58,636 nt of DNA from positions 1-58,636 of the forward strand of contig CAUJDY010000019.1 of the NCBI GenBank assembly GCA_963169805.1, read 5' to 3'. A program made the position numbers and the translations under genes. Position 1 is the first letter of the stretch; each line of letters begins with the position of its first letter. Of this stretch, positions 6,980 to 33,135 are shown one piece after another. Source of the stretch: Bdellovibrionota bacterium (GTDB lineage: Bacteria > Bdellovibrionota > Bdellovibrionia > Bdellovibrionales > JAEYZS01). The notes below the pieces were generated by a model that had not been told where the DNA came from, did no database searches, and saw nothing but the letters and a program-made list of their open reading frames with translations.

Positions 6980-8908
6980 CTATTTCTTTTTCTTGAATAG
7001 CATACCAACAACATCTTTTAAATCTGCATTCATGATGTCTACAGGTTTTGAAGATTTCTTTTGGAGCGAGATAATATTCAATTCTCTTTTTGCTTCTACG
7101 TTATTTGATTGCATTGAGAGAGCTTGTTTCATATTTTTTTCTGCCTGTTCAAGATCTCCAATTTGCTTCAAATATAGACCTTTAACAAAATAATAGGTCG
7201 TATTATGCCTATCCTCAGGCGGTATTCTATTTAAATCTGATTCAATATCCTTTAGATAGGATTCTACGTTTTGTGCTTGTGGGATTAGGATTTTGCCCCA
7301 AAGATAGTGTAAGCGAATTTCTGCAGTTGGGGGGCGAAGAGACATTGCTTTTTCTAAAAGAGGAATAGCTTTCTGAGGTTGGTTTGATTTTAGAAAGGAT
7401 TTTCCTTCTTCGAATAAAGATTCTGACTCAAGAATTTTTTCAGCAAACCCCTTTTCAAGTTCTTTAAGATATTTAAGTCTTGATTCATCTTCACCAAGCA
7501 TTTCATAGGCTTTAGAGATCTTTGCAAAAATATTATTTGTTAACTCTAAAACTTCTTTTGGAGCTTGTGGAGAGACTTTGTCTGGGTGAAAAAGCTTTGA
7601 AAGCTCATAGTAAGATTTTTTGATCTCTTTTGATTTTGCTTTATCGCTAAGACCTAAAACTTCAAAGTGATTTTGCAGATCCATGTCTGCCTTAATTTTA
7701 GAAAGTCTTTCTATAAGCGCCTTATTGTCGACAGGCTTTACCTGCTTATCGAAGCAAATAAATTCGTTAACAATTAGCATGTGAACACCTATCAGGACAT
7801 CTTCTTCTTTGAATGTCTTTTGGTCTAAAATTTCTGTTAAATTGGCGCCTTGTGTGAGAATTTGTGCAAACTTAGGCATTCTATTAAGCGGAGCTAAATT
7901 ATGAATAGGTGATATGTCAGCAAAGAATTTTGTTTTGGATATTTTATTTTCCATCCAAGGCATGTAGAAAGTTTTAAGCCATGTCAGGGTGAATTTTGAG
8001 TGCAGCCAATCGCTGAGAAACCTTTGGTAATCCTGTGATTCTAGATGAACGGCATCCTCTGTTATATTTTGTTCTGATATTTCTAATTCATATGAAGTGT
8101 TTTTAATTAAATATCCCACTCGTATGCCAAGCTGTTCAGCGTTGATAATATCAATAACATGTGGACTTACAAGATTTGCGTCTACAAGTCTCTCTCCAAT
8201 TCTTTTGGATGATTTTTGTTGGAGAGTTGTTTCAAGCATTTCTACAGAAATAAAGTTTTTATCAACGAGGAGTGCTCCAAAGAATGACTTTGGATCATCT
8301 ACAACTGCCTTTACAATCGCTCCTGATTTAAGATGTATTTCTATTGGCTTCACTTGAGAAGATTTAAATTTTAGTATTCCAGAGAATTGAGCCTTCATTA
8401 GGTATGCAAGTGCACGAGGAACATCAAATCCATGGATTTCTGTCATAGAGCGTACGGCTTCAAGTCTTTCTGAATGTGTTGCTTGATCTTTTGTTAGGAT
8501 ATCAGACGTAGGGGCTAACTCTTCAGTTACAAGATCTGCAAATTCGTTTGATAGAAGTTCTACTACGACTTTTGTATCTATAGGTTTTTTAAAAAAGTGC
8601 TGTGACTTAGTTTTAATCATAGCATCTTTAGCAGAGCTTTTATCTAAAACAAAACTCATAAAAATAAATTTAGGTGTAGATGTTGCTTCTTTTTGGATTA
8701 TGCCAACAATATTATCGAGAGAGGCTTTTTGAGTGAGGCATTCAATAAAAATTAAATCAAATTTTCTAAGCTTAACGGTTCCAATGAGTTGATCATGGTC
8801 AGAGAAGCAAAAAACAGAATAACCCGCCTTCTCAATTTCAGCCTTCATTTTTTGGGCAGATGCGGAGTCAATATCTAGAATGGCAATAGAAATATCTTTT
8901 TTATTCAT
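6980..8908 (-). CDS. Multidomain J-protein: REC-like (Glu at acceptor position), DUF4388-like region, DnaJ J-domain and TPR repeats
   Basis: N-terminus ILDIDS...FDLIFIE...FKKPID. The central segment FSGILKFKS..IEIHLKSGAIVKAV is DUF4388-like. J-domain NHFEVLGLSDKAKSKEIKKSYYELSKLFHPDKV carries the HPD motif. The C-terminus has TPR-like repeats. Confidence 0.7.
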   Translation of the reverse strand: MNKKDISIAILDIDSASAQKMKAEIEKAGYSVFCFSDHDQLIGTVKLRKFDLIFIECLTQKASLDNIVGIIQKEATSTPKFIFMSFVLDKSSAKDAMIKTKSQHFFKKPIDTKVVVELLSNEFADLVTEELAPTSDILTKDQATHSERLEAVRSMTEIHGFDVPRALAYLMKAQFSGILKFKSSQVKPIEIHLKSGAIVKAVVDDPKSFFGALLVDKNFISVEMLETTLQQKSSKRIGERLVDANLVSPHVIDIINAEQLGIRVGYLIKNTSYELEISEQNITEDAVHLESQDYQRFLSDWLHSKFTLTWLKTFYMPWMENKISKTKFFADISPIHNLAPLNRMPKFAQILTQGANLTEILDQKTFKEEDVLIGVHMLIVNEFICFDKQVKPVDNKALIERLSKIKADMDLQNHFEVLGLSDKAKSKEIKKSYYELSKLFHPDKVSPQAPKEVLELTNNIFAKISKAYEMLGEDESRLKYLKELEKGFAEKILESESLFEEGKSFLKSNQPQKAIPLLEKAMSLRPPTAEIRLHYLWGKILIPQAQNVESYLKDIESDLNRIPPEDRHNTTYYFVKGLYLKQIGDLEQAEKNMKQALSMQSNNVEAKRELNIISLQKKSSKPVDIMNADLKDVVGMLFKKKK

Positions 8909-9036: not shown

Positions 9037-9363
9037 ATGGCAAAGTTCACAAAAGCAACAACTGACAGTAGTTTTGAACAAGATGTAATCAAGGCAGAGA
9101 AGCCTGTGCTTGTAGATTTTTGGGCAGAGTGGTGTGGCCCATGCCAAGCCCTAGGTCCGAAGCTTGAAGAAGTAGCTGAAGCGATGTCTCAAAAAGCGAC
9201 GATTATTAAGCTTAATGTAGATGAGAATCCGCAAACAGCAGCTAAGTATGGTGTGAGAAGTATTCCAACAATGATCATTTTTAAGAATGGTCAAGATGTA
9301 GATCAAATCGTTGGCAATGTACCAAAAGAGACAATCGTATCTATGCTTCAAAAACACATGTAA
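9037..9363 (+). CDS. trxA: Thioredoxin
   Basis: 108 aa with [14 protein letters not shown] (WCGPC active site) and [14 protein letters not shown]. Confidence 0.95.
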
Positions 9364-9444: not shown

Positions 9445-10560
9445 TTAGAAGATGTACCTTCTGGCAGAGACGCTCGAAATAATACCTAAACACACAAATG
9501 TTGTTAACATACCGGATCCACCATAAGACATAATTGGTAGTGGGATTCCCACAATCGGCAGCATTCCAATAACCATACCGATGTTTACAAACATATGCCA
9601 AAAAATAATTGAAAGACATCCCACAACAAGAAGTGCACCGTATTTATCTCTGGCTTGTGATGCGATTTTTATCCCAATCAACAAGAGAATTATAAAGAGC
9701 GTAAAGACAGTAAAACTCCCAACAAACCCGTGCTCCTCTGATAAGACACTATAAATAAAATCAGTGTGGCGCTCTGGTAGGAAATCAAGTTGCGACTGAG
9801 TGCCGTTTCGAAAACCTTTGCCAAAAAATTTTCCACTACCTACTGCAATTTTAGATTGAATGCTGTTGTAGCCAGCTCCTTGAGGATCACGATTTGGATC
9901 AATAAATGTCAGAACTCGATTTTTTTGATATTCTTTAAGTCCAAAATTCCATGCTAAAGGAATGATAAGGATTCCTGTAATGATAAGAGAGATGAGAATT
10001 GTTTTTCGGATACCAACAAACAGCAACATAGACCCTGCAACAGAGGCAATCATCATAGCTGTTCCTAAATCGGGTTGTGAGACTGTGAGTCCAAAAGGTA
10101 TCAAAGTCAGAAAGACAGGCATTGCAAGTTCTTTGAGGCCAAGTCCACTGATTGGACTTTTTTCTGCAAGAACTTTAGCTAGCACAAGAGCTATAACCAA
10201 CTTCATTGTCTCAGAAGGCTGATACTTAAAAAAACCTAGATCTAGCCACCTTTGTGCGCCGTAGGCGATGTTTCCTATCAGATCAACAACAATAAGAAAG
10301 ATCACATTAATGACATAGAGTGGGTAAGCCATTTTTAAGAAAACTTTGTAATCAATAAGCGTTACTAAGAAAAATAAAATCCAACCACCAGAAAACCAAA
10401 CCATTTGCATAGTAAAGAGTCTATTAATACCCACTGTTTCTGGATCATGTGTTGCGCTAAATAAGTTGATGAGACCAATAATATTGAGTGCGAGTATCAC
10501 AAAAATCAGATTGAAATCTAATTTTTTTAAAAAACCTCTTTCTTCAATCTGCATTTCCAT
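9445..10560 (-). CDS. rodA: Rod-shape-determining SEDS glycosyltransferase RodA
   Basis: FtsW/RodA/SpoVE family multi-TM protein (QPSETMKL, PDLGTA, FLPERHTDFIYSVLSEEHGFVGS). Lies immediately downstream of PBP2. Confidence 0.9.
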   Translation of the reverse strand: MEMQIEERGFLKKLDFNLIFVILALNIIGLINLFSATHDPETVGINRLFTMQMVWFSGGWILFFLVTLIDYKVFLKMAYPLYVINVIFLIVVDLIGNIAYGAQRWLDLGFFKYQPSETMKLVIALVLAKVLAEKSPISGLGLKELAMPVFLTLIPFGLTVSQPDLGTAMMIASVAGSMLLFVGIRKTILISLIITGILIIPLAWNFGLKEYQKNRVLTFIDPNRDPQGAGYNSIQSKIAVGSGKFFGKGFRNGTQSQLDFLPERHTDFIYSVLSEEHGFVGSFTVFTLFIILLLIGIKIASQARDKYGALLVVGCLSIIFWHMFVNIGMVIGMLPIVGIPLPIMSYGGSGMLTTFVCLGIISSVSARRYIF

Positions 10561-12523
10561 TATCTGGAGTCTCCTTATTAGGTATTATTTTTGGAGCAGC
10601 TGCTACAAATTTTTCTGGGTGATACTTTTTCATGTAAGCTTCGATAATATCTCGTGCAATTGGTGCAGCACCACCGGAACCTGAACATGCATGTTCTGCA
10701 AGTACTGAGACAACAATCTCGGGATTATCGGCAGGTGCATAGGCCACAAACCAACCGTGGTGCCTTTGTTTGATGGGGCGCGATTTACAATCTGCAAAGA
10801 CTTGGTCTGCACTGAGTGTAAAAAGTTGAACAGTCCCAGTCTTTCCAGCAATAGGTGTGTTAGCTACCTTGTGCCATTTTGCAGTACCAGACGGTCCATT
10901 ACCGACCATCCATAGACCTTCTCTGATAATATCCATATTTTGTTTTGAGACTTTTACCTCTGTGTTTTGGCCTGTTACGGTATCAAACTTAAGTTCTTCT
11001 TTTATATCTTGAATAACTTTTCCATCTATATCTAAAACTTTCTTTACAAAGTGAGGCTGAAACACAGGGCCTGCATTTGCAAAACTTGTAAAGGCTTGAG
11101 CTAATTGGAGCGCGGTCGTAAGAAAAAAACCTTGCCCAATTGCATTCGAAAGATTTTCGCCAGGTTGCCATGGTTCACCAAAAGTTTTTTGTTTCCATTC
11201 TTCGGTTGGAACAAGTCCTGGGACTTCGTTGACCATATGAATACCGGTACGCTTACCAAATCCAAATGAGCGTGCGTATTTTGCAATTCTATCAATCCCT
11301 AAAGCCAGCCCCATTTTATAAAAGAAAACATCACACGACTGCTCGAGTGCCTGAACAACATTCACATATCCATGTCCACGCTTTTGGTGGCAGTGATAAA
11401 TACGCCTACCAAACTTATAAAAACCTGGGCAAAATACAGTTGAACTTTTTGTCACTTCTTTTTCCTCGAGCGCTGCGAGGGCTACTATTGCTTTGAATGT
11501 GGATCCAGGGGGAAAGTGATCTTGAATCACTTTGTTACGAAGAGGTTTAAAAGGATGATTAATAAGCTCCGTCCACATTTTTGAAGAAATACCTTTTGAA
11601 AATTCTGTTGGATCAAAACTAGGTCCGTTGACCCAGGCTAAAATTTCTCCATTTTTTGGATTCAGAGCGACGGCTCCTCCTATGCGTTCTTTTGCAACGA
11701 ATGAAGCTTGTGCTGCTTCTTGAATATCTTTATCGATCGTGAGCATTAAAGTTCTGCCAGGAATAGGCTCGCGTGTTAAACTCACTTCCCCGATAAATTC
11801 TGGAACAGAAAGGGATGTAATTTCTCTTCCTCTTGCATCTACTTGAATAAAATCCTGACCACTGCTTCCACGAAGATCTTTATCATAAACAACTTCTAAT
11901 CCATTTTTGCCAACGATATCGCCTTGAGAAAACTGTTCATCAGGTCGGAGGTTTTTATTGTATTTTGGAAGTTCGTCTTTAGAAATTTCTCCAACGTAAC
12001 CAAATAGTTGAGCTCCATTTTCTTTGAGTAAATAAGATCTTTGGATTGTCATAGAAATATCTAAACCTGGATTATTGATACGGAGTCGGTCCAATCTTGC
12101 GACTTCGTCTCGGTTGAGATTGTTTTTGATTACGACAGGGCGGAATGGTCCATTTTTCTTTTTTTCTACTTTTACTTGGTGAATAATTTTTTCCGTTGGT
12201 AAACCTAAAATTGGACTTATGATGTGTGCTGTTTTTTCGAGTTCAGTGGCATATTGAGGTGTTATGGAAACTTCAAACCCAGGGAAATTATCAACTAGAA
12301 TTTTTCCCTCACGATCAATAACCATTCCGCGAGGGGCTTGAATTTTTTTAATTTTAAATCTATTTTTTTCAGAGAATAGACGGAGTTCTTCGCCTTGAAA
12401 AACTTGGAGATACCAAAGACGCATAATAAAAATAACAAACGTAAATGCAACCAGTGCGTAAATGTACTTATATCGAGGCAAATAATCTTTGGCCTCTTCT
12501 GGATCCGATAGGTATTCGTTCAC
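10544..12523 (-). CDS. mrdA: Penicillin-binding protein 2 (elongasome transpeptidase)
   Basis: 659 aa with an N-terminal TM helix, RGMVIDREGKILV, active-site PGSTFK (SxxK), and KTGT near the C-terminus. Operon context is mreCD-mrdA-rodA. Confidence 0.9.
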   Translation of the reverse strand: MNEYLSDPEEAKDYLPRYKYIYALVAFTFVIFIMRLWYLQVFQGEELRLFSEKNRFKIKKIQAPRGMVIDREGKILVDNFPGFEVSITPQYATELEKTAHIISPILGLPTEKIIHQVKVEKKKNGPFRPVVIKNNLNRDEVARLDRLRINNPGLDISMTIQRSYLLKENGAQLFGYVGEISKDELPKYNKNLRPDEQFSQGDIVGKNGLEVVYDKDLRGSSGQDFIQVDARGREITSLSVPEFIGEVSLTREPIPGRTLMLTIDKDIQEAAQASFVAKERIGGAVALNPKNGEILAWVNGPSFDPTEFSKGISSKMWTELINHPFKPLRNKVIQDHFPPGSTFKAIVALAALEEKEVTKSSTVFCPGFYKFGRRIYHCHQKRGHGYVNVVQALEQSCDVFFYKMGLALGIDRIAKYARSFGFGKRTGIHMVNEVPGLVPTEEWKQKTFGEPWQPGENLSNAIGQGFFLTTALQLAQAFTSFANAGPVFQPHFVKKVLDIDGKVIQDIKEELKFDTVTGQNTEVKVSKQNMDIIREGLWMVGNGPSGTAKWHKVANTPIAGKTGTVQLFTLSADQVFADCKSRPIKQRHHGWFVAYAPADNPEIVVSVLAEHACSGSGGAAPIARDIIEAYMKKYHPEKFVAAAPKIIPNKETPDNGNAD

Positions 12524-13047
12524 GACATACCTCCTTCTCGAATAGATTCATCAGGAGGATTCAATTTTTCAAGAATGGGGTAGAAAATAGGGCTGATGAT
12601 GAAAGCTAGAAATGCCTGTGCAATCCATTTCCAAACTTGAGGACTAGCGTGAGGTTTTATCTCTGTTAAAATGGAAATTAAAAATACGAAAATTTGAAAA
12701 ATGAGGATGCTAGCTGCATAAACTGTCGCAAAATACATTTTGCTTGGAATAAAGATACGGTCTTTTAAAAGCTTAATAAAAATATAAACAGCTGTGAGTC
12801 CAAAAAGGATAAATCCAAGGGGTTCTGCGCTCAGTGCAAAGTAAAAGAGGGACGGAACATATATTATAATCAATCCTTCAATACGAGTTCGATAGAGCAT
12901 GACTGCAACAACAACGGAAAGCCACAGCATAGGACTAGGAACTGGCGCAAATAGCCAATACCAAAAAGACGTTTCAACACACGCAACTAAAATTACGAGG
13001 AGAATATTGATTATTAAAAAAGTGTTACTACGTTCTTTTTCTGTCAT
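12520..13047 (-). CDS. mreD: Rod-shape-determining protein MreD
   Basis: 175-aa polytopic membrane protein between mreC and mrdA. Its 3' end overlaps the mrdA start by 4 nt. The call rests mainly on position. Confidence 0.7.
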   Translation of the reverse strand: MTEKERSNTFLIINILLVILVACVETSFWYWLFAPVPSPMLWLSVVVAVMLYRTRIEGLIIIYVPSLFYFALSAEPLGFILFGLTAVYIFIKLLKDRIFIPSKMYFATVYAASILIFQIFVFLISILTEIKPHASPQVWKWIAQAFLAFIISPIFYPILEKLNPPDESIREGGMS

Positions 13048-13048
13048 T

Positions 13049-13912
13049 TCAATCTTTCAGGCTGAGTTCTTTCATTTTTGCTTCGACTGCTTGTATGTCA
13101 TTTGTCTTCAAAACAATAAAAACTGCTTCTGAGTCAAATGTAGATACAAGAGGCTGAATTTGCACTTCCTGCGAAATTCCGTAATCTTTCTTTTCAACTT
13201 TAGTGACTTTGCCTATAGGAAAGCCTTTAGGGAAGATTCCATCTAGACCTGTAGTGACAATAAGGTCTCCTGCTAGTACATCATCGGTTCTTTGAAGATA
13301 TTTAAGTTTACAAAGTGAAGGAGATGCTCCCTCTACGATTCCTCGCGCTTGCGAGCGTTCCACAACGGCATCAATAGCCGAGTAGGTGTCAGTGAGGGTT
13401 AAGACCTGAGAGAAATCTTCTTCTGTATTTAGAACGGAGCCTATAACACCTCTAGGTGTAATAACAGCTTGTCCCGGTTGAATTCCATCTTTTGAACCTT
13501 TATCAATAAAAAGTGTTGTATGCTGTCCCAATAAATCATGACCAATAACACGCGCACCTAGAAGTTTATGTTGAGATGTTTTTTTAAACTCCAAGAGTTC
13601 TGTTAGACGAGTGTTTTCTTGCTCTAAACTTTTGAGGATGAGAAGTTCAGCTTCTAGTGCACTCATTTTAGTTTGCATTTCTCGATTGTTCTTTTTGATA
13701 TCAATGAGGTTAAGATATAGGCTTGTTGTTTTTTGAACACTGTCTGAGTAGTTGGATACACTACTTTGAATAAACGATGCCGTTATAAAAAAGGGTTTAA
13801 GAAAAAAGGACAGCTCGCCTTCATTGCGCTGAATGTTAATTGCAATCATCGGTATCGTAACTAATAAGCATATGATGAATATTTTTTTGAAATCGATGGG
13901 GAAAAAACCCAT
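13049..13912 (-). CDS. mreC: Rod-shape-determining protein MreC
   Basis: N-terminal TM helix, coiled coil (LEAELLILKSLEQENTRLTELLEFKK), then a beta-rich domain with PRGVIGSV...GLDGIFPKGFPIGKV. Confidence 0.85.
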   Translation of the reverse strand: MGFFPIDFKKIFIICLLVTIPMIAINIQRNEGELSFFLKPFFITASFIQSSVSNYSDSVQKTTSLYLNLIDIKKNNREMQTKMSALEAELLILKSLEQENTRLTELLEFKKTSQHKLLGARVIGHDLLGQHTTLFIDKGSKDGIQPGQAVITPRGVIGSVLNTEEDFSQVLTLTDTYSAIDAVVERSQARGIVEGASPSLCKLKYLQRTDDVLAGDLIVTTGLDGIFPKGFPIGKVTKVEKKDYGISQEVQIQPLVSTFDSEAVFIVLKTNDIQAVEAKMKELSLKD

Positions 13913-14059: not shown

Positions 14060-15229
14060 ATGATCAACGAACTTAAATCAAAGTTAACTAAGAAAAACAT
14101 TTTCGCGACAATATTATTCTCTGCCATTATTCTTGTATTTGTCTTTTTCGGATTTCAGGCAGGTGGGCCAGGAATGGTAGGCTATGCGGCTCGAGTGAAT
14201 AGTAAGACTATCTCTTTAAGAGATTTACAAATGGCAAGCGAACGTCTAGCTCAGTTTTATTCGTCATTTATGGGGGGCCAGCAGGCGAACAATGAGATGT
14301 TTCAGATGCAGATTAGAAGCTCTGCGTTAAATCAGCTAATTCAAAGAGAGGTCCTTCTTCAAGGAGCGAAGAAAGCTGGCTTTACGGCATCAGATCTTGA
14401 AATTGCAGAGTTCATCAGAGGAGTTCCTCAATTTCAAAAAGATGGAATTTTCCAAAGAAGTATTTATCAATCGTTTATTGAGCAGCAGGGACTTTCAACA
14501 AGCAAGTTTGAAGAGCAGATTCGAGATGATATTATTCTTAACAGAGTTCAGTCGGTTGTTAATTTGGGTTTAGAACCTTTTCAGGCAGAGGTGGCAAAGC
14601 TGGCAAAATTGAAAGAAAAAACAATTACTCTGGATTACGTGAATATCAAAAATATCAATTTTGATAAGATGGTGAGCGTTGGAGATTCTGAGGTTCAGCA
14701 GTTTCTAGAAAACAAGGACAATCAACTCAAAGTACAGCTTGAATTTGGGAACAATAAAGAGATTTATAAAGATAAAACTTTAGAGTCAGTTCAATCTGAA
14801 ATTGCCAAAAAAATTATAAGAGATGAGAAATCAGAGAAGCTATTGTCTCAAATGGAACAGGCTGCACAAAATCTAGCAGAAGTTGAGACTTTGCTAAAAA
14901 AATATGGAGCCTCTTGGAGTAAAACGACGGCTGTTACGCTTGATGCGGATGCGATTCCTGAAATCGGAGCTTCTGATAGGTTACAGGCAGAGCTTGGAAA
15001 GCTTGAAAAGCCAGGCCAACATGTTCCAGAGGTCATTCGAACATCTCAGGGTGATTTTTTGGTTAAGTTGAGATCGATTGACACTAAGAAAACAAACACA
15101 GCGGAAATTTCAGGGCTTGATGAGCAAATTCGAGGACAAAGAGTAAATGAACTAATGATGAAGTGGTCTGATCAGCTTGCCAAAGATGCCACAATTGTGC
15201 GAAACGAAAGTCTATTCACCAGGCAGTAG
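14060..15229 (+). CDS. PpiD/SurA-N-terminal-domain-like periplasmic chaperone (no obvious parvulin domain)
   Basis: N-terminal membrane anchor IFATILFSAIILVFVFFGF, followed by a region resembling the SurA N-terminal domain (ISLRDLQMASERLAQFY..., EFIRGVPQFQKDGIFQRSIYQSFIEQQGLS). Confidence 0.6.
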   Translation: MINELKSKLTKKNIFATILFSAIILVFVFFGFQAGGPGMVGYAARVNSKTISLRDLQMASERLAQFYSSFMGGQQANNEMFQMQIRSSALNQLIQREVLLQGAKKAGFTASDLEIAEFIRGVPQFQKDGIFQRSIYQSFIEQQGLSTSKFEEQIRDDIILNRVQSVVNLGLEPFQAEVAKLAKLKEKTITLDYVNIKNINFDKMVSVGDSEVQQFLENKDNQLKVQLEFGNNKEIYKDKTLESVQSEIAKKIIRDEKSEKLLSQMEQAAQNLAEVETLLKKYGASWSKTTAVTLDADAIPEIGASDRLQAELGKLEKPGQHVPEVIRTSQGDFLVKLRSIDTKKTNTAEISGLDEQIRGQRVNELMMKWSDQLAKDATIVRNESLFTRQ

Positions 15230-15336: not shown

Positions 15337-17274
15337 TTAAGAAGCTTTTTTAAGTTTTTGAGTCCATTGATTAATTTTGATCAATGATTGTTCGTCTGTA
15401 TCCGTAAACTTCACGCCGTAATTTTGGGTATTTGACATCCAAACAACTTGTCCTGAAACACGAATGCTGTCGCTACCATTTGGACCGGCGACTTTCATTT
15501 GGACTGGCAGACCAAGTTTGAGTACGGCACTTGTATTCAGGCTGAGACCACCCAGAGAGATTGTTCCAACTTGTCCTAGATATTCAGACTGACCAAGCAA
15601 AATCTGTACTTGTGATGGCATATGGAAACGTTCAAATCGTCTCTGATTTTTTGGGTTTTGGCTTAGTAGTATTGCAATCACAAGTGGGAAAGCAAGAATA
15701 GCCAGAACAACTAATATTGAAAGTGGGTGAGTAGGAGGAGGATTATTTTGATTGTTTTCGTAGTCTGTATAAACTTTTTGAACTAAGCCACATCCCGCTG
15801 CAGCGGCACCGGCTGGTGATCTTAATAAATGTGCTGAAACATCGTAGTCAGGAGAAGAGGCATCAACAGAGGCAGAGTTTGCATCAGCAACAGCTGTGCT
15901 CGCATTTACACGACCACTATTCTTCACTTTTCCTTGAAGTTTTGGTGTAGCGCCAGACAATGGAACATCAATTGATCCCATGAGTAAGTTTTTTGTTTGG
16001 TAACCAATCATTGTAGGCTGTTGATACATCATCATAGCTGCAATACCGGCTACAAATGGAGCGGCCATACTGGTTCCAGTCATGGAGGCTGTATAGTTAC
16101 AAGTGGCATCGCCCGTATTGCAGGCAACTGTACTTAAGACTCCAACGCCAGGTGAGCCAATGTGAACATTATTGACTCCATAGTTTGAGAAGCTTGCGCT
16201 GTAGTCGAACGAATTTGAAGCTCCAACAGAAAGAACATTAGGAACATTATAAGACGCAGGATAAGTTGGACTTGCATCAATGTTTAACCCAGAGTTACCT
16301 GCTGCAGCGACAAACAGAGTGTTACGATCATAAGTGTAGGCAATAGCTTCATGTAGTGCAGTGGAGTAAGAACCACCTCCCCAAGAATTATTCAAGATTT
16401 TTGCACCTTTGCTAGCGGCATAATAAATGGCTTGAATAGCATCAGAGGTTGTTCCAATCCCATCACAATCTAAAAACTTAAGAGCCATGAGTTTAATTCG
16501 AGTGCTTGCTAATGCTCCAGCCCCAACCCCAATAATATCCTGAGTGGCTCCGCGAATAATTCCGGCTACATGTGTTCCGTGATCGTTACAGTCATTAGGA
16601 GTGTTGTCGTTTGAAACAAAATCCCAGCCGGCAATGTCATCAACATAGCCGTTGCCATCATTATCAACACCGTCGACCACTTCTCCAGAGTTGGTCCATT
16701 TAGCATCAGCAAGAAGAGTATTTCTGAAATCGATGCCAGTGTCTATCACTGCAACTACAATTTCTGGATTTCCTGTGCTTAGCTGAGCCCAAGCTTCAGG
16801 AACTGATATCGGTGCTCCTGTTTGATCGTAAGGAAGACCTGTTGCACCTTCGTGATAGTTTTGAGCTGCATATTCCTCAGCTTCTTCAACAGACATTGTT
16901 TGGGACTCGCGTACGGCGCGTGTGACGGACACGTAGTAGTTTGGCTCTGCGTACTCAATATCTGGATCGTTTCGAAGTTCGTTGACCATTTGGGAAACAG
17001 TTTTATTAGATTCGATTTTATAACTAAAAGTGCCTTGATCGACCCACGCACGCTTTGCTTTGAGTCCTTTTTTGGATGCAATTTTTTGATGAATTGAAAG
17101 AGTCTTTGATTTTGTGTTGGCAGCTGAAAGGCTATTTGTGGGATCTTGATTTTTGTATTTAACAATAACTTCTCCGGGAACATAACTGTTTGTTATGCTC
17201 TGAGCTGCAGAGAATGATCCTACAAAAAGAAAACAAAAAGATAAAAGTACACTAAACGTTCTATTCACGCACAA
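15337..17274 (-). CDS. Secreted subtilisin-like (S8) serine protease with a C-terminal TM helix and cytoplasmic PilZ-like domain
   Basis: Signal peptide MCVNRTFSVLLSFCFLFVGSFSAAQS. Triad motifs VAVIDTGID, HGTHVAG and GTSMAAPFVAG. TM helix LSILVVLAILAFPLVIAILL. The C-terminal 102 aa contain RRFER (RxxxR) and TISLGGLSL (xSxxG). Confidence 0.85.
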   Translation of the reverse strand: MCVNRTFSVLLSFCFLFVGSFSAAQSITNSYVPGEVIVKYKNQDPTNSLSAANTKSKTLSIHQKIASKKGLKAKRAWVDQGTFSYKIESNKTVSQMVNELRNDPDIEYAEPNYYVSVTRAVRESQTMSVEEAEEYAAQNYHEGATGLPYDQTGAPISVPEAWAQLSTGNPEIVVAVIDTGIDFRNTLLADAKWTNSGEVVDGVDNDGNGYVDDIAGWDFVSNDNTPNDCNDHGTHVAGIIRGATQDIIGVGAGALASTRIKLMALKFLDCDGIGTTSDAIQAIYYAASKGAKILNNSWGGGSYSTALHEAIAYTYDRNTLFVAAAGNSGLNIDASPTYPASYNVPNVLSVGASNSFDYSASFSNYGVNNVHIGSPGVGVLSTVACNTGDATCNYTASMTGTSMAAPFVAGIAAMMMYQQPTMIGYQTKNLLMGSIDVPLSGATPKLQGKVKNSGRVNASTAVADANSASVDASSPDYDVSAHLLRSPAGAAAAGCGLVQKVYTDYENNQNNPPPTHPLSILVVLAILAFPLVIAILLSQNPKNQRRFERFHMPSQVQILLGQSEYLGQVGTISLGGLSLNTSAVLKLGLPVQMKVAGPNGSDSIRVSGQVVWMSNTQNYGVKFTDTDEQSLIKINQWTQKLKKAS

Positions 17275-17454: not shown

Positions 17455-17599
17455 CTAAGGTACCAGGTCGCTTTTCCGAATTACGTGGGTTAGTTTTGAT
17501 TTGAAGTGTAACTATTTTAGAAAAATTCAAACGATGAATTTCTTGCAACTCAGATTAAAAATACCCCCCATAATTCGGAAAAGCGACCTGGTACCTTAG
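17455..17599. repeat. MITE-like element: perfect 29-bp terminal inverted repeats around an 87-bp non-coding core
   Basis: CTAAGGTACCAGGTCGCTTTTCCGAATTA (17455..17483) is the exact reverse complement of 17571..17599. The right arm overlaps the stop codon of the dadA-like gene. Confidence 0.6.
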
Positions 17600-18834
17600 A
17601 AGCGGTTGGGATTAAAGGGGGAGGGGTTTACGTAGGGAGTTGTGCCTGAGATTAATTCTTCTGCAAGACGAGCAGATCCAGGTGCTGATTGTAGGCCCAA
17701 CATTTGGTGCCCGGTGCAGTAAAATAAATTTTTATATCGATTCGAAAAGCCAATCATTGGTACTCCGTCGGGCGTACAAGGTCTCAGACCTCTCCAGGTT
17801 TCCTGAATATCAAGATCGAGAGGAAGATCAAAAAACTGTTGCGTACCTTTTATGATAGCTTGAACTCGACGTGGAGAAATGGATTCGTCATTTCTGACAA
17901 GCTCTAACGTTCCTGCAACACGTACAGAATCTTTACGAGGTGTAATGGCAATTTTTTTCTCTATTAACATCATTGGATGCAAAGGTATATTTTTAAAATT
18001 CTTAACGATAAGGCTATAACCCTTTCCCCCCATTACAGGAATACTTAAGTTCAGCTGGCGCGCTAACAATTGTGACCATGTTCCCATGGCAATCACTACA
18101 AGATTTGCTTCAAAAACACCTCGAGTCGTATGTATCTTTTTAATATCACCCTTGTGAGCCTCGATTTGAAAAACTTCAGTGAAGGGAAGGAATGTCCCTC
18201 CTAGATTTTGAACTTCTTGCGACATTTTTTCAACTGCAGCGAGGGGCTCTACGTGAGCTTCATTCGGAAAATAAACTCCACCTAAAAGATTCTTTTTAAT
18301 TGAGGGTTCCATTTTATAAATTTCATCTGGAGTGAGTTTTTTACCTGTGATACCTCTGAGCGCCATCAGTTCAAGTTCTTCAACTGCAGCCTTGTAGCCC
18401 TCATTAGTTTGAGTCACCATTAAGAGGCCTTTTTGTTGAAAAGAAAAATCATGTTTTTGTGAAAGTTCTTGGTATATTTTTAAACTTTCTTTTGAAATTT
18501 CAGCTAAAACTTCAATAGATTGATTCATTTTTTTGTGAGTCATGCTTTTTGTAAAATACATAAGCCACTTAGCAAGTTGAGTGCTGAATTCAGGTTTAAT
18601 ATAGAGCGGACTTTCTGGATCTAAAAGCCAGCCTAAGGATTTCCAAAACATCCCTGGTTGAGGAAGTGGCATTGCAAAACATGGAGTCACCCACCCCGCG
18701 TTTCCGTAAGAGCAACCATAGCCAATGGCTCCTTTATCTAAAACAGTAACGTGTCTCCCTTTTTTTTGTAGAGCATGAGCGACTGAGGTCCCTACTATTC
18801 CAGCTCCTAGAACAAGTATATCAACTTTTTTCAT
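17596..18834 (-). CDS. FAD-dependent oxidoreductase, D-amino-acid dehydrogenase (DadA)-like
   Basis: N-terminal dinucleotide fold MKKVDILVLGAGIVGTSVAHAL..VTVLDK and GCSYGNAGWVTP, as in DadA. 412 aa. Confidence 0.7.
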   Translation of the reverse strand: MKKVDILVLGAGIVGTSVAHALQKKGRHVTVLDKGAIGYGCSYGNAGWVTPCFAMPLPQPGMFWKSLGWLLDPESPLYIKPEFSTQLAKWLMYFTKSMTHKKMNQSIEVLAEISKESLKIYQELSQKHDFSFQQKGLLMVTQTNEGYKAAVEELELMALRGITGKKLTPDEIYKMEPSIKKNLLGGVYFPNEAHVEPLAAVEKMSQEVQNLGGTFLPFTEVFQIEAHKGDIKKIHTTRGVFEANLVVIAMGTWSQLLARQLNLSIPVMGGKGYSLIVKNFKNIPLHPMMLIEKKIAITPRKDSVRVAGTLELVRNDESISPRRVQAIIKGTQQFFDLPLDLDIQETWRGLRPCTPDGVPMIGFSNRYKNLFYCTGHQMLGLQSAPGSARLAEELISGTTPYVNPSPFNPNRF

Positions 18835-20163
18835 TTATTTTGCTTTTACTTTATGTTTTGAGTCAGAATTTTTGGAAGGAGACACTTTAGCTTCAGGTTC
18901 AAAACCATCCCAACATTTCAAATAATCTTTCTGCAGAAACTTAGATTTTAGAGATTGTTGTGTGGTACGAAAGGTGTAACGTGTTTCAAACATGAATGCC
19001 ATTGTTTGATCAATTTTAGTTGGTTTGAGTGTCTCGGCTGTGGCTTTGCGGTAAGTTTCTAAATCTGGGCCGTGGGGAGTCATCGTATTATGAAGGCTTG
19101 CTCCCCCAGGGAGAAATCCCTCTTGTTTTGCATCATAGGCGCCAACAATTAATCCCATAAATTCACTCATACAGTTTCTATGAAAATATGGTGGACGGAA
19201 AGTATTTTCGGCAACCATCCACCTTGGTGGAAAAATCACAAAATCGACATTCGCTGTACCCACTTCATGGGAGGGTGATGTTAGGACTGTAAAAATGGAA
19301 GGGTCGGGATGGTCAAAGCTCACGGTGTTTATAGTATTAAACAAGCTAAGATCATACTTATAAGGATATGTATTTCCGTACCATGCTACTACATCGAGAG
19401 GATTATGATTGAGGTTGGCTACAAAAAGTTCGCCCATATATTTGTTAAGCAATTTGTATGTCCCAGTTTCATCTACATAGTTGGCAACTGGTGCTAAGAA
19501 ATGTCTAGGGTTGGCAAGGCCGTTTGCCCCAATTGGACCCAAATCTGGAATTCTAAGATAAGAACCAAAGTTTTCCAAAACATAGCCTCTCGCCTTTTCT
19601 GATTGAACAAGAACCTGAAATTTCACTCCACGTGGAATTACTAAAATTTCTAATGGCTTGATCTCAAGAATACCAAATTCTGTTTTAAAGCATAATTCTC
19701 CTTCTTGTGGAACGATGAGCATTTCTGCATCAGAATTTTGGAAAAAACTATTCTTCATAGATGAATTGCACGTGTACATGTGAACAGCGCACCCTGCTTG
19801 GCTTGGAGGGCTTCCTGCTACTGCATATGTCATAAACCCCGCTATAAAATCATGAGACTTGTTAGGTATTGGAAGAGGGCTCCAGCGTAGTGGATTGGGT
19901 GTACAGATTTCATCAAAGTTATGCGAAAAAAATGTTGGGTGGTGAAAAGGTTTAAATTCTCCGTGACCTACAGAAGGTCTTAGGCGGTATAGCCAGGATT
20001 TTAAATTTGATTTTTGAGGAGCTGTGAATGCAGTTGAACTTAATTGTTCCGGGTAAAGAGAGTAAGGTGTTTTTTGAGGGGAATTTTGATTTTGAGGTAG
20101 GGCATTTTTCAGGGCTTCTGTCGATAAGATATTTTGAAATCCACTCATGTAATCAAGTTTCAT
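18835..20163 (-). CDS. hmgA: Homogentisate 1,2-dioxygenase
   Basis: 442 aa. The N-terminus YMSGFQNILSTEALKNALPQNQNSPQK, the later PPYFHRNCMSEFMGLI and the FMFE segment are typical of HGD. Confidence 0.85.
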   Translation of the reverse strand: MKLDYMSGFQNILSTEALKNALPQNQNSPQKTPYSLYPEQLSSTAFTAPQKSNLKSWLYRLRPSVGHGEFKPFHHPTFFSHNFDEICTPNPLRWSPLPIPNKSHDFIAGFMTYAVAGSPPSQAGCAVHMYTCNSSMKNSFFQNSDAEMLIVPQEGELCFKTEFGILEIKPLEILVIPRGVKFQVLVQSEKARGYVLENFGSYLRIPDLGPIGANGLANPRHFLAPVANYVDETGTYKLLNKYMGELFVANLNHNPLDVVAWYGNTYPYKYDLSLFNTINTVSFDHPDPSIFTVLTSPSHEVGTANVDFVIFPPRWMVAENTFRPPYFHRNCMSEFMGLIVGAYDAKQEGFLPGGASLHNTMTPHGPDLETYRKATAETLKPTKIDQTMAFMFETRYTFRTTQQSLKSKFLQKDYLKCWDGFEPEAKVSPSKNSDSKHKVKAK

Positions 20164-26858: not shown

Positions 26859-27001
26859 AAGAACCTCATGGTTAGAGCAACTAGATATGTCTAGAATTGG
26901 AACATTTATCAAATAAAAAGAGTTTGTCGCAAAGCGATACACCCTTTGTTCCATCTGTAGAAAAGTTTAACAATTTCCATAAAATTCCGAAAAGTCTAGA
27001 T

Positions 27002-27643
27002 ATGGCAAAAAATAACGCGATCAAAAATAGCGGCATCCACAAGGCTACTAATAGGCGAGTTGATGCTCGGATAGACGTCAGTGCACTCCAGTACAAAGTG
27101 GCCTTTGTAAATCCGCAGGATGTGGAGTCTGATGTGCTCTTGCACAATATTAGTCTTGGGGGAATAGGTATTGTGTCTCAAGATGAGATGCAAATTTCTG
27201 ATCGTGTTCATTTTTGTTTTGATCGATATACCAATCATTATTTTTCGGGAACAATCAAATGGGTGGAAAGGCTTCGAGACGCTAAGACATTTAAATATGG
27301 AATTCAGTTTGATATTGGCAGTGAAAAAGATCTTGAAGTTGTAAATGCCTTTGTTACTCAAATATTTATTCAGATGCCAAAGGAATTTATTATTATTAAA
27401 GCCATCGAGTTGTTTACTTCTGGGCAAATGCTTCAAAATCAACTGAAACTTAAAGAAGTAGAGCAGATGATCATCAAAGATGATATTAAATCATTCGTTA
27501 AAAATATGAGTGGAAAAATAGAAAGTTCAATTAAAGACATTCCTAATTCTAAGGATCTTATTCTGAACTTTCTATATCAGATGTATATGTTGAAGGCCGA
27601 TGTCGATCAGTTTCAAGCTGATGTGGATACAAAGTATCACTAA
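27002..27643 (+). CDS. Stand-alone PilZ-domain protein with a C-terminal helical extension (start trimmed to MAKNNAIK)
   Basis: Canonical c-di-GMP-binding motifs RRVDAR (RxxxR) and NISLGGIGI ([D/N]xSxxG) in the correct spacing. Confidence 0.75.
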   Translation: MAKNNAIKNSGIHKATNRRVDARIDVSALQYKVAFVNPQDVESDVLLHNISLGGIGIVSQDEMQISDRVHFCFDRYTNHYFSGTIKWVERLRDAKTFKYGIQFDIGSEKDLEVVNAFVTQIFIQMPKEFIIIKAIELFTSGQMLQNQLKLKEVEQMIIKDDIKSFVKNMSGKIESSIKDIPNSKDLILNFLYQMYMLKADVDQFQADVDTKYH

Positions 27644-31428: not shown

Positions 31429-32007
31429 TTGAGCTTTCGTCCAAAATCACTTTCATTTCAAATGATTTTTGTCATCAGTGGAATTTTAGTTTTACTGTTT
31501 TTTATTTTCTTTTTAAGAGAATATCAAAACGTTGTTTCTCAAAAATCAAACGCATGGACAGAGGATACGACGGGTGATTGTGCTGTTGTTTTGACTGGAG
31601 GGAGGGGGCGTGTCAAGGAGGGATTCTCGCTCCTAGCGCGAGGTTCAATTCGCAAGCTTATTATCTCTGGTGTTTATGAAAAAGCCCAATTGAAAGATCT
31701 ATTTCCAGAGCTTATTTTTATCAGTACAATCAACCCGGATGATATCATTTTAGAGAAACACTCTCAGACAACATATGGAAATGCATTGCAGACACGAACA
31801 CTCGTGGAGGCATTAAAGTGTAAAGATCTTGTGCTGATTACCAGTCAAACACATATGTACCGTGCATATAAAACATTTAGAAATCATTTTCCAAAAGAAT
31901 TTACGATTACTAAAAGATCATTAACTGCAGGCAGTTATAATCATGAAGTCATAGAGTCCATGGAAGAAGCTCTAAAGTCTTTATTCTATTCTGTTTGGAC
32001 GTATTAA
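31429..32007 (+). CDS. DUF218 (SanA/ElyC/YdcF-like) membrane-anchored protein
   Basis: N-terminal TM helix, then CAVVLTGGRGRVKEG...LIISGV...TYGNALQTRTL...LVLITSQTHMYRA, the typical DUF218 core. TTG start. Confidence 0.7.
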   Translation: MSFRPKSLSFQMIFVISGILVLLFFIFFLREYQNVVSQKSNAWTEDTTGDCAVVLTGGRGRVKEGFSLLARGSIRKLIISGVYEKAQLKDLFPELIFISTINPDDIILEKHSQTTYGNALQTRTLVEALKCKDLVLITSQTHMYRAYKTFRNHFPKEFTITKRSLTAGSYNHEVIESMEEALKSLFYSVWTY

Positions 32008-32981
32008 GACGCTTTTTTAATTTCGACTTTGAAAAGTGTGCGGAACACTTTAATAAGAGCCGGATCATATTTTCCGCTTTCTGTTAAGAGAAGCGCGAGA
32101 GCGTCTTGAGGTGTGTAGAGTGCCCGGCCACCTCGGCGAGTTGTAAGTGCACTAAATGCATCAGCTATTGCAACAACACGGGCAGGATAAAAGATTTCAG
32201 GGCCACGAAGTCCTCTTGGATATCCAGTCCCATCCCAGTGCTCGTGATGTTGTTCAATAACAAGTTTTACTTCTTCTGGAAAACCTTTAAGCTGATTCAC
32301 CATTTCTATTCCCATTGCTGGGTGGCTTTTAACCTTGGCCCACTCTTGAGGTGTTAGCTGGCGATTCACGCTATCAAAATCTTCTGGTAGTTTACTCATT
32401 CCAAGGTCATGTAGAAGACCTCCTAGTCCTATGATGCTAAGAGTTTTTTCATTGTTATTTTGAGCTGCCTTAGCAAGTAAGATCGAAAATACAGACGTTG
32501 CAATCGCATGTCTGCATGGATATGCCTCTTGTCTTGAAAGATTAATGAACGTTGCCAAATTTTTTGGGTCTACTTTTAGTATATCAATATAGCTCTTAAT
32601 AATAGTTTGTGTTCTACGTAGGGAGTGTTCGTCAAAAACCTTGTCCTCGTATATTTCAAAGAGAGTTTGTTCTGTGAGTTCCTCTATCGCCTTTTGTGCT
32701 TCCGCTAGATTGAATTCTTTTGCATCTTTAAGTTTGTGAACAAGAACTTCGGTGGCACTGATATAGTCTCTTCTTTCAGATCTATGAATATATAATTGCT
32801 GAACACCTTTTGCAGAGTAGTGTTCAAAACGCTCTTTATCAACAATGTCTCCTTTTTTGAATATTAAAGTGAATTTATCAATGCTTAACTGAACATACAC
32901 TCCAAAGGGAAGTTGTCCTGTCATTGAGAGCAGGTTATCGATGCTGATTTCTGAATAATCCTTATACTTAACTTGAGACAT
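32004..32981 (-). CDS. HD-GYP-domain c-di-GMP phosphodiesterase (start trimmed to MSQVKYKDY)
   Basis: GGLLHDLGM (HD) and HHEHWDGTGYPRGL (GYP) motifs. The N-terminal domain is uncharacterised. Confidence 0.85.
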   Translation of the reverse strand: MSQVKYKDYSEISIDNLLSMTGQLPFGVYVQLSIDKFTLIFKKGDIVDKERFEHYSAKGVQQLYIHRSERRDYISATEVLVHKLKDAKEFNLAEAQKAIEELTEQTLFEIYEDKVFDEHSLRRTQTIIKSYIDILKVDPKNLATFINLSRQEAYPCRHAIATSVFSILLAKAAQNNNEKTLSIIGLGGLLHDLGMSKLPEDFDSVNRQLTPQEWAKVKSHPAMGIEMVNQLKGFPEEVKLVIEQHHEHWDGTGYPRGLRGPEIFYPARVVAIADAFSALTTRRGGRALYTPQDALALLLTESGKYDPALIKVFRTLFKVEIKKAS

Positions 32982-33135
32982 GATTTTATATCGGTATCTA
33001 GAGGGGTGAACTGAAAGAAAACCCAAGTTTTAGCGAAAGGCTTTCGTCGAGAATGTGGGTTAAGTTTTTGGCTTGTGTCTCAAATTGAATCAGTTTGGAG
33101 TCATCTTTAATATAATCTCTTCCGATAAAGCATAG

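Follow-up and report, generated by a model that had tools for sequence, protein, structure and literature searches.

In the window, the whole 58,636-nucleotide stretch of Bdellovibrionota DNA that we analysed, a minus-strand gene at 15337..17274 encodes a subtilase (Peptidase_S8, here S8) joined through one transmembrane helix to a PilZ domain. Our best explanation of this arrangement, in which we have somewhat better than even confidence from its sequence and predicted structure, is 'inside-out' control by c-di-GMP of a periplasmic protease tethered to the inner membrane. The S8-PilZ fusion is not a new architecture; it is a widespread and already catalogued family of the Bdellovibrionota. 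If the PilZ domain binds c-di-GMP and thereby alters the protease, the family would place extracytoplasmic proteolysis under second-messenger control within one polypeptide, a logic that, to our knowledge, is at present known for the two-protein LapD/LapG system only.

Gene and family

The open reading frame comprises 645 codons, from a TTG at 17274 to the stop codon at 15337-15339, and reads as a pre-pro-subtilase-TM-PilZ protein. Re-translation of the coordinates placed this frame, and all of the peptides quoted from it in the earlier note, exactly where that note had them; every feature of the gene described below lies on the minus strand. The true start is probably GTG 17268, which would give a protein of 643 residues: a GGAG sequence precedes this codon by 8 nt, and the 90% identical homologue P0001 begins with MNRTF. 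A scan for promoters and terminators around the gene found nothing above chance, and an Rfam search of its 5' region for riboswitches or known RNAs returned generic-hairpin matches only, all of them sub-threshold.

At least 261 full-length homologues have the same S8-TM-PilZ layout, and all of the named ones come from Bdellovibrionota. Both S8 and PilZ are present in each of the 238 distinct matches listed in two homologue searches, and the pattern Cys...RxxxR[FYW]...[T/S]hSxxG is found in 261 of 262 full-length members. A scan of genome contigs with the whole protein recovered 80 loci, all of them other S8 paralogues, with no S8-PilZ fusion encoded at any (0/80). A homologue search with residues 482-645 alone gave no matches, a result of a word-index limit and not evidence of absence.

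The earlier note knew of no description of the architecture, a novelty that the published record does not bear out. A 2008 survey of serine proteases lists the Subt-PilZ architecture of B. bacteriovorus NP_969350.1 under a generic 'Signalling' label (PMC2605481), a 2020 review names Peptidase_S8 among the partners of PilZ (PMC7288161), and databases hold hundreds of homologues, some annotated as 'subtilisin family serine protease/Tfp pilus assembly protein PilZ'. NP_969350.1, from strain HD100, has the same Peptidase_S8 and PilZ architecture as the window gene and comes from the same phylum, the only two features from which we infer their orthology. We found no functional study in the literature, and no binding or activity data, on any S8-PilZ member, nor any description of two features discussed below, the T/S replacement in the PilZ pocket and the invariant juxtamembrane cysteine. 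A point against the control mechanism favoured here comes from Tn-seq in B. bacteriovorus 109J, where insertions in a probable orthologue, assigned by neighbourhood only, are tolerated and cause no strong defect in predation. The 'First Bite' paper names three attack-phase pilZ genes of B. bacteriovorus, Bd2524, Bd2545 and Bd3100, and its supplement contains no entries matching the S8-PilZ gene.

Protease domain, membrane helix and juxtamembrane segment

The N-terminal signal peptide spans residues 1-24 (17203..17274; ...SFSAA|QS), as judged by hydrophobicity and an n-h-c layout. Small residues at positions -3 and -1, together with an 'A.AQ' end that is moderately conserved across the family, suggest that it is cleaved. 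Following it is a subtilase propeptide of the intramolecular chaperone/inhibitor type (16939..17202), recognised by Pfam and by fold match, with a Fervidolysin_NPro-like prodomain (PF22148) at residues 23-112 (E 4.8e-11).

The Peptidase_S8 catalytic domain comprises residues 171-435 (15970..16764) and matches PF00082 at E 5e-49 and 167.5 bits (cut-off 21.8). The catalytic triad is formed by D178 in VAVIDTG (codon 16741-16743), H232 in HGTHVAG (16579-16581) and S402 in GTSMAAPF (16069-16071), positions that were re-translated and that are invariant in 121/121 family sequences. The oxyanion asparagine is N327 (AAAGN), also invariant, in alignment A2. A full-length AF2 model (pLDDT 83) displays the subtilisin alpha/beta fold; its best Foldseek match is the deseasin MCP-01 (3vv3; 42% identity, E 2.8e-24), and it also matches unautoprocessed pro-subtilisins and fervidolysin. 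The complete triad reported in the earlier note is therefore intact, and we predict that the domain is a protease with a preserved active site. Two more specific assignments were rejected. The best NCBIfam match, mycosin (TIGR03921), reached 126.2 bits where 278.75 are required, and in the wrong context, with no T7SS genes nearby; the anti-phage S8 protease IteS scored 14.6 bits, its cut-off being 900.

By hydropathy, hydrophobic segments occur in just two places in the protein, at residues 1-24 and at 518-537. The second, LSILVVLAILAFPLVIAILL (15664..15723), is a predicted single transmembrane helix, with a mean Kyte-Doolittle value of 3.12 over 19 residues, an AF2 helix at 517-538 and an equivalent hydrophobic segment in 121/121 family members. 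The lysine and arginine residues flanking it number 0 on the N side versus 4 on the C side in the window protein, and on average 1.3 versus 6.2 across 121 sequences. Because this charge distribution is positive-inside, we place the PilZ domain in the cytoplasm. These features support a bitopic N-out/C-in protein of the inner membrane, with the lone internal helix and inward C-terminus that had been proposed from the sequence.

The tether between the protease and the helix (481-517) is modelled with low AF2 confidence, and within it residues 486-499 are predicted to be disordered (pLDDT <50). Here we found a conserved periplasmic segment, R485...G494-C495-G496-L-V-x-K500 (15775..15822; C495 codon 15790-15792), in which C495 and G496 are invariant (121/121) and R485 nearly so (119/121). 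C495 is the sole invariant cysteine of the family, often the single cysteine of the mature protein, and being the sole conserved one it could not form an intramolecular disulfide.

A segment that is conserved yet predicted to be disordered is what would be expected of a processing or recognition site, and the succession of G-C-G, spacer, transmembrane helix and Arg-rich tail start could represent a Cys sorting signal of the MYXO-CTERM kind. The protease would then be lipidated and/or cleaved, under c-di-GMP gating via the PilZ domain, before transfer to one of three destinations, namely outer membrane, cell surface or prey. Bdellovibrio-like predators do secrete many proteases, and the invariance of C495 and G496 would suit such a role. 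The order of elements is also that of the MYXO-CTERM protein TraA, in which the helix comes after a spacer of ~13 residues and leads into an Arg cluster, the generic motif of these signals being GCGC (PMC11980579). The candidate signal is not C-terminal, however, as a folded domain of ~100-108 aa follows the helix, and an NCBIfam search of the 80-aa juxtamembrane/TM region gave no match to MYXO-CTERM (TIGR03901) or to another sorting signal at E<=10. Moreover, a scan of 2,618 ORFs from the loci examined, most of them from Bdellovibrionota, revealed no other Cys-TM-Arg C-terminus, a CPBP-type protease gene is absent from all 8 neighbourhoods, and Bdellovibrio goes unmentioned in the survey of such signals by Haft. 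We consider sorting of this kind to be quite improbable. Lower still in our estimation is the idea that helix and PilZ domain together constitute a second-messenger-gated C-terminal sorting signal, with the Cys segment as its processing or lipidation site and c-di-GMP, or cGAMP in view of the T/S residue of the PilZ pocket, deciding between retention on the predator's inner membrane and export towards surface or prey; if true, this would make it the first protein-sorting tag under nucleotide control.

PilZ domain and its probable ligand

The cytoplasmic PilZ domain comprises residues 543-645 (15340..15648) and was identified by Pfam, AF2 and Foldseek. PF07238 matches the full protein at E 1.6e-16 and 60.9 bits (gathering cut-off 22.5), so that Peptidase_S8 and PilZ both score well above threshold in the same polypeptide, and it matches the tail alone at E 4.7e-18 and 65.8 bits, with 100 of 102 profile positions covered. 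The AF2 model of the tail is a confident PilZ barrel (pLDDT 92.4), with six strands and a C-terminal helix at tail positions 90-100. Its top 30 Foldseek matches are all PilZ domains, with TM scores of up to 0.81, and the best of these in the PDB are the c-di-GMP-bound PilZ domains of Alg44, MapZ, YcgR and BcsA (Alg44 4rt0, E 2.7e-6 and TM 0.74-0.77; 4xrn, TM 0.81). By profile and predicted fold, what the earlier note had described as PilZ-like is a genuine PilZ domain.

Of the two ligand motifs, RxxxR is represented by R545 and R549 (RRFER, 545-549; 15628-15642), and the second, [D/N]hSxxG, takes the variant form [T]hSxGG at T571-G576 (TISLGG, 571-576; 15547-15564), its h, S and G positions being conserved. 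All 121 family sequences keep R545, R549, G575 and G576, and S573 is found in 118/121. T571 aligns with the asparagine of NISAGG in MotI. The substitution of threonine for D/N was correctly noted at the outset; it is not, however, a peculiarity of one protein, since T or S occupies the position in 256/261 members (T 195, S 61, C 4, N 1, D 0).

A PilZ protein with serine in place of D/N, PA2989 of P. aeruginosa, can bind c-di-GMP, and binding is reported to persist in PilZ domains that form part of fusion proteins (Galperin & Chou preprint 10.1101/814665). PA2989 differs from the window protein in belonging to the tetramer-forming tPilZ subclass with a helical insert, in being soluble and in having no protease domain. 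From its motifs and modelled fold, the tail is a predicted c-di-GMP receptor. Its affinity or specificity may differ from those of textbook PilZ domains, because D never occupies the guanine-contacting position and N does so in 1/261 members.

Taken further, such a difference could mean that the T/S pocket has been retuned to another nucleotide, for example 3'3'-cGAMP, making the protease cGAMP-responsive or dual. The preference for T/S (256/261) does set the family apart from its 173 nearest non-family PilZ domains, 138 of which have N/D and among which the T/S cases are mostly truncated family copies. The window's stand-alone PilZ protein (26897..27643, plus strand; RVDAR and NISLGG) likewise has N at this position. 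B. bacteriovorus makes cGAMP by a Hypr GGDEF enzyme, and no receptor for it is named in the paper concerned, from whose text the words 'receptor' and 'effector' are absent (PMC9140294). Against a change of ligand, serine at the D/N position still permits c-di-GMP binding in PA2989, and the remaining c-di-GMP contact motifs of the window protein are all canonical. We know of no PilZ domain demonstrated to prefer cGAMP, and we rate a change of ligand the least probable of the readings weighed here.

The window encodes a further component of nucleotide signalling, an HD-GYP-type phosphodiesterase (32004..33026, minus strand), which matches HD_5 and HD and carries HD at 206 and HHExxDGxGYP. Motifs and profile matches thus confirm both this gene and the canonical stand-alone PilZ that the earlier note had pointed out.

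Proposed control of proteolysis and comparison with known systems

In the mechanism that we favour, c-di-GMP control of the tethered protease, the Sec system would export the protein via its signal peptide, and the propeptide would assist folding of the subtilase in the periplasm before being removed. The mature protease would remain on the periplasmic side of the inner membrane, held there by ~35 flexible residues and one transmembrane helix, with the C-terminal PilZ domain staying in the cytoplasm. Binding of c-di-GMP would close the RxxxR loop onto the barrel, or bridge two PilZ domains, and this closure or pairing would in turn shift the helix and juxtamembrane segment or bring them together in pairs. 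Since the RxxxR loop starts 7 residues past the exit of the helix from the membrane, an effect of the nucleotide on these elements is to be expected. The resulting change could alter the activity of the periplasmic protease, its access to substrates, its binding of partners or its release. In this way c-di-GMP binding would be coupled to proteolysis. As a single helix is a weak allosteric conduit, control may run through oligomerisation or localisation and not through catalytic switching. The T/S residue of the pocket, found family-wide, and the invariant juxtamembrane cysteine offer mutational handles on the system.

Alternatively, the PilZ domain could be a localisation or scaffold module that, whether c-di-GMP is present or not, brings the tethered protease to a cytoplasmic partner or to a cell site such as the Sec/PpiD site, the elongasome or a pole; activity would be unchanged and regulation would be by placement only. 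On general reasoning, placement passes through a single transmembrane helix more easily than allostery does. Some PilZ proteins work purely by protein-protein contacts, and the nearest PDB relatives of this PilZ domain by sequence are the type IV pilus PilZ proteins of Xanthomonas. Gene order also bears on this reading. Convergent with the protease gene is a gene for a PpiD/SurA_N-like membrane-anchored periplasmic chaperone (14060..15229, plus strand; Pfam SurA_N_3, 2.5e-36), the window neighbours being the ppiD-like gene, mreCD, pbp2, rodA, DAO and hgmA. The ppiD-like gene and mreCD-pbp2-rodA adjoin the S8-PilZ gene in 7/8 contexts examined, with its orientation varying between clades. Adjacency alone is no proof of interaction, however, and it is absent in the remaining context (1/8), a Bdellovibrio sp. 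locus. In addition, adaptor PilZ domains that do not bind have lost RxxxR and [D/N]xSxxG (Galperin & Chou preprint 10.1101/814665), whereas RxxxR and [T/S]xSxxG are near-invariant in the S8-PilZ family, which makes it very likely that a ligand is involved. We therefore regard a pure localisation role as unlikely, if still deserving of attention.

Under the preferred reading of c-di-GMP-controlled proteolysis, the family gains interest from its hosts. c-di-GMP governs prey invasion and growth in Bdellovibrionota. Because the S8-PilZ family is conserved across this phylum, and usually lies beside mreCD-pbp2-rodA and ppiD-like genes, it is a testable candidate for connecting nucleotide signalling with remodelling of the envelope in predatory bacteria.

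Several known systems share part of this design. The mycosins (MycP), subtilases of type VII secretion, resemble the window protein in combining an S8 domain with a signal peptide and a membrane anchor at the C-terminus, but have no PilZ domain. MYXO-CTERM and GlyGly-CTERM proteins, such as TraA and VesB, the latter itself a serine protease bearing such a C-terminal tag, share a short Gly/Cys signature, a spacer, a transmembrane helix and a basic cluster; the window protein differs in matching no model of these tags, in carrying PilZ after the helix and in having no cognate sorting enzyme that we could see. LapD/LapG, of Pseudomonas fluorescens and relatives, follows the same inside-out logic, with cytoplasmic c-di-GMP controlling periplasmic proteolysis (PMC10333796). 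The analogy is functional only: that system consists of two proteins, a receptor with degenerate GGDEF-EAL domains and an unrelated soluble protease controlled by sequestration, and by Pfam the window protein contains neither HAMP-GGDEF-EAL nor a LapG-type protease and has no homology to either part. Alg44, the alginate co-polymerase of P. aeruginosa, differs in that its PilZ domain is N-terminal, an HlyD-like domain without enzymatic function makes up its periplasmic part and its sequence identity is only 18-20%; according to published family descriptions it carries the standard [D/N]xSxxG, where the window protein has threonine. Its PilZ domain is nevertheless the best structural match to the tail, and Alg44 is likewise a single-pass inner-membrane protein in which a cytoplasmic, c-di-GMP-binding PilZ domain controls a periplasmic function.

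Domain architecture of the S8-PilZ protein and its family

The minus-strand open reading frame at 15337..17274, which encodes 645 aa when read from its TTG, was present as the earlier note had described, and re-translation of the codon ranges placed all of the peptides quoted there where they had been reported. The true start is probably the GTG at 17268 rather than the listed TTG at 17274, because a GGAG lies 8 nt upstream of it and the 90%-identical homologue P0001 has the N-terminus MNRTF; this start gives a protein of 643 aa, with nothing else altered. Residues are numbered here from the TTG.

The protein comprises a fervidolysin-type subtilase propeptide (residues 23-112, Pfam E 4.8e-11), a Peptidase_S8 domain (171-435, E 5e-49) and a C-terminal PilZ domain (543-638, E 1.6e-16, 60.9 bits against a cut-off of 22.5), all three far over the curated Pfam cut-offs. 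An NCBIfam scan gave sub-threshold matches only. The highest was to the model for the membrane-anchored mycosins of T7SS, at 126 bits where the cut-off is 279; the tail had a weak match to TIGR02266, a myxobacterial PilZ paralogue domain. A full-length AlphaFold model built from 43 family sequences (pLDDT 83) matched the structures of deseasin MCP-01 (42% identity, E 2.8e-24), unprocessed pro-subtilisins and fervidolysin. The Pfam domains and these fold matches mark the N-terminal two thirds as an ordinary pre-pro-subtilase whose active site is intact. Its catalytic residues, D178 (VAVIDTG), H232 (HGTHVAG) and S402 (GTSMAAPF), form the complete triad recognized earlier, and the triad is kept in 121 of 121 family sequences.

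The tail is a real PilZ domain by the test of its predicted fold. Alone, it scores 65.8 bits with the Pfam PilZ model, and its AlphaFold model (residues 539-645, from 27 tail sequences) has a pLDDT of 92.4, with six strands and a C-terminal helix. In the PDB, every top Foldseek match is a PilZ domain, and almost all are structures with c-di-GMP bound. Among the matches are Alg44 (4rt0; E 2.7e-6, TM 0.74-0.77) and a P. aeruginosa PilZ domain (4xrn; TM 0.81), with further matches to MapZ, YcgR, BcsA, MotI, PlzD, MrkH and PlzA. Profile search and structure prediction, both proposed in the earlier note, thus agree on the assignment.

The PilZ motifs are RRFER (545-549) and TISLGG (571-576). By profile alignment, T571 aligns exactly with the Asn of NISAGG in B. 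subtilis MotI, so the threonine had been correctly placed at the D/N position of [D/N]xSxxG. Residues R545, R549, G575 and G576 are conserved in 121 of 121 sequences and S573 in 118, and the pattern Cys...RxxxR[FYW]...[T/S]hSxxG occurs in 261 of 262 full-length members. Across full-length members the D/N position holds T (195), S (61), C (4) or N (1), and never D; of the 173 non-family PilZ domains nearest to it, 138 have N or D, and the T/S cases in this set are mostly truncated family copies. The stand-alone PilZ of the window carries N as well. On this sequence comparison, the threonine is a conserved family signature and not decay. A serine at this position in P. aeruginosa PA2989 is compatible with c-di-GMP binding, and PilZ domains within fusion proteins are reported generally to keep binding (Galperin & Chou preprint). 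We consider nucleotide binding by the S8-PilZ protein likely. The T/S pocket might prefer another nucleotide, for example 3'3'-cGAMP. Bdellovibrio makes this molecule, and neither a receptor nor an effector is named in the paper that describes it (PMC9140294); we regard such a preference as highly improbable.

The fusion is, on database searches, not a one-off. All of the best 120 homologues (40-90% identity) have S8 and PilZ domains and nearly all have the propeptide; the organism-named matches among them are all Bdellovibrionota, Bdellovibrionales, Bdellovibrionaceae or Bdellovibrio, the one exception being a MAG labelled generically as 'Proteobacteria bacterium'. With a Bdellovibrio sp. member as its seed, a second search added 118 distinct clusters of identical layout, and a tail-only profile search of 1.8 billion representatives returned 45 clusters at E<=1e-30, all of them either proteins of 600-680 aa matched at their very C-terminal end or truncated versions of these. 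Nor is the architecture undescribed, as had been claimed: a 2008 survey gave B. bacteriovorus NP_969350.1 as 'Subt-PilZ' with the sole label 'Signalling' (PMC2605481), a 2020 review lists Peptidase_S8 among PilZ partners (PMC7288161), and JGI annotations of homologues read 'subtilisin family serine protease/Tfp pilus assembly protein PilZ'. Our full-text literature search found no functional study of S8-PilZ proteins. Apparently new here, in that we did not find them in the literature examined, are the family-wide T/S pocket residue, an invariant juxtamembrane cysteine motif and a conserved neighbourhood. The protein belongs to a catalogued family and does not represent a new kind of system; as a subject for experiments it is a good choice.

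Topology and the juxtamembrane cysteine motif

Only two hydrophobic segments occur in the protein, residues 1-24 and 518-537. The first is built like a signal peptide, positions -3 and -1 being small residues (SAA|QS), from which we infer cleavage. The second, LSILVVLAILAFPLVIAILL, averages 3.12 on the Kyte-Doolittle scale and lies within a single AlphaFold helix (517-538); ahead of this helix the model has a tether of ~35 residues (481-517) at low confidence, and after it comes the PilZ barrel. There are no Lys/Arg in the 15 residues before the helix and four in the 15 after it; averaged across 121 family members, the counts are 1.3 and 6.2, respectively. The positive-inside rule links a basic flank to the cytoplasmic side, and this charge bias would therefore place the protease in the periplasm and the PilZ domain in the cytoplasm, the one-helix, C-terminus-inside arrangement first proposed.

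Approximately 22 residues before the helix is an invariant motif, G494-C495-G496-[L/T/M]-V498-x-K, which the earlier note did not mention, with a near-invariant R485-x-[P/L]-A-S upstream. C495 is the only invariant cysteine of the family and in many members the sole cysteine of the mature protein, so no intramolecular disulfide is possible. Residues 486-499 have a pLDDT below 50; conservation of a disordered segment usually hints at a partner, at processing or at contact between chains. In the order of its elements (G-C-G, spacer, transmembrane helix, basic cluster) the region resembles the MYXO-CTERM tag, whose generic motif is GCGC; in TraA the helix follows a spacer of 13 residues (PMC11980579). 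The Cys-helix-PilZ unit could accordingly be a gated sorting or release signal; sorting-signal models gave no match to the juxtamembrane and transmembrane region, no other Bdellovibrionota protein with a Cys-TM-Arg end was found among 2,618 ORFs of the compared loci, and we think this reading improbable.

Genomic neighbourhood and other c-di-GMP-type genes

On one side of the protease gene are a ppiD/SurA_N-like gene (14060-15229, +) and, on the minus strand, mreC (13049-13912), mreD (12520-13047), pbp2 (10544-12523) and rodA (9445-10560), followed by a thioredoxin gene (9037-9363, +). In six further contexts, with orthologues of 41-54% identity, ppiD-like and mreCD-pbp2-rodA genes likewise adjoin the protease gene, which in four of them (L083, L084, L087 and L088) is co-directional and 167-259 nt downstream of a full-length ppiD. 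The window's clade differs: there the two genes converge, and the ppiD-like one has lost its rotamase domain. The window's ppiD-like product has 389 aa, with only an N-terminal membrane anchor and SurA_N domains; in the more distant clades, represented by those four loci, the neighbour has 500-516 aa and keeps the parvulin/rotamase domain. This adjacency suggests, without proving, a link to envelope biogenesis.

The Bdellovibrio sp. orthologue (L085) has a different location, adjoining MgtE and two ABC transporter genes. In the B. bacteriovorus 109J Tn-seq table (PMC6561027 supplementary file 3), EP01_RS08730, a 'subtilisin-like serine protease', adjoins the same 2OG-oxygenase/ABC/ABC/MgtE run and is, by neighbourhood only, probably the 109J family member. 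It tolerates transposon insertions, with a fitness of ~1.0-1.5, near neutral genes; should it be the orthologue, predation in that screen did not require the gene.

Beyond the thioredoxin gene is an unusual multidomain protein (6980-8908, -) with a receiver domain, DUF4388/PatA_N, a DnaJ J-domain and TPR repeats, which keeps this position beside thioredoxin and rodA in the orthologous loci L081 and L083. On the other side, a DAO-family FAD oxidoreductase gene (17596-18834, -) lies between the protease gene and homogentisate dioxygenase (hgmA; 18835-20163, -); its absence from that place in L081 and L086 suggests a local insertion. A hairpin (17455-17599) abuts the DAO 3' end, between the DAO stop (17596) and the S8-PilZ start. 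It has 57-nt arms of 84% complementarity, with the inner 31 bp perfect, a 31-nt loop region and an RNA fold of -69 kcal/mol (z = -9.8), and is single-copy in the window. Rfam gave no riboswitch, only sub-threshold miRNA-precursor-like (generic hairpin) matches; the hairpin could terminate or insulate the operon upstream of it, or else be a small element of mobile or REP-like type.

Both of the other c-di-GMP-type genes named previously were recovered. The stand-alone PilZ (26897-27643, +; Pfam 2.8e-9) has canonical motifs, RVDAR at 54-58 and NISLGG at 84-89, and ~90 aa without assignment C-terminal to the domain. From its first ATG it overlaps a convergent dCTP-deaminase-like ORF (26322-26954, -) by 58 nt, and its real start may therefore be an internal Met. 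The HD-GYP-type phosphodiesterase (32004-33026, -; Pfam HD_5 1.9e-29, HD 1.1e-13) carries HD at position 206 and HHExxDGxGYP at 260-270; Pfam assigns no domain to its first ~170 aa.

Possible inside-out control and known systems

The architecture and topology, on which the original structural interpretation was right, are very probably as described; the function is a well-founded hypothesis. After export by Sec, the subtilase would mature in the periplasm and stay anchored to the inner membrane, its C-terminus forming a nucleotide sensor on the cytoplasmic side. The RxxxR loop of characterised PilZ domains closes around c-di-GMP when the nucleotide binds. Because this loop begins only 7 residues past the helix here, a bound nucleotide should influence the helix directly. 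It could pull or tilt the helix or pair two chains, and in either case would affect the conserved juxtamembrane segment. From sequence, we lean slightly towards inside-out control by c-di-GMP of protease activity, access, partners or release, whereas a coupling of binding to proteolysis itself is proposed only tentatively. That the PilZ domain merely localises the S8 enzyme seems unlikely.

By protease type and anchoring, the closest known proteins are the mycosins, although assignment as a mycosin is ruled out by score (126 versus 279 bits) and context. In architecture, Alg44 comes nearest among characterised proteins, with a cytoplasmic PilZ domain, one helix and a periplasmic domain. In logic, the nearest system is LapD/LapG, in which c-di-GMP governs a periplasmic protease from inside (PMC10333796) through two unrelated proteins rather than a single polypeptide.
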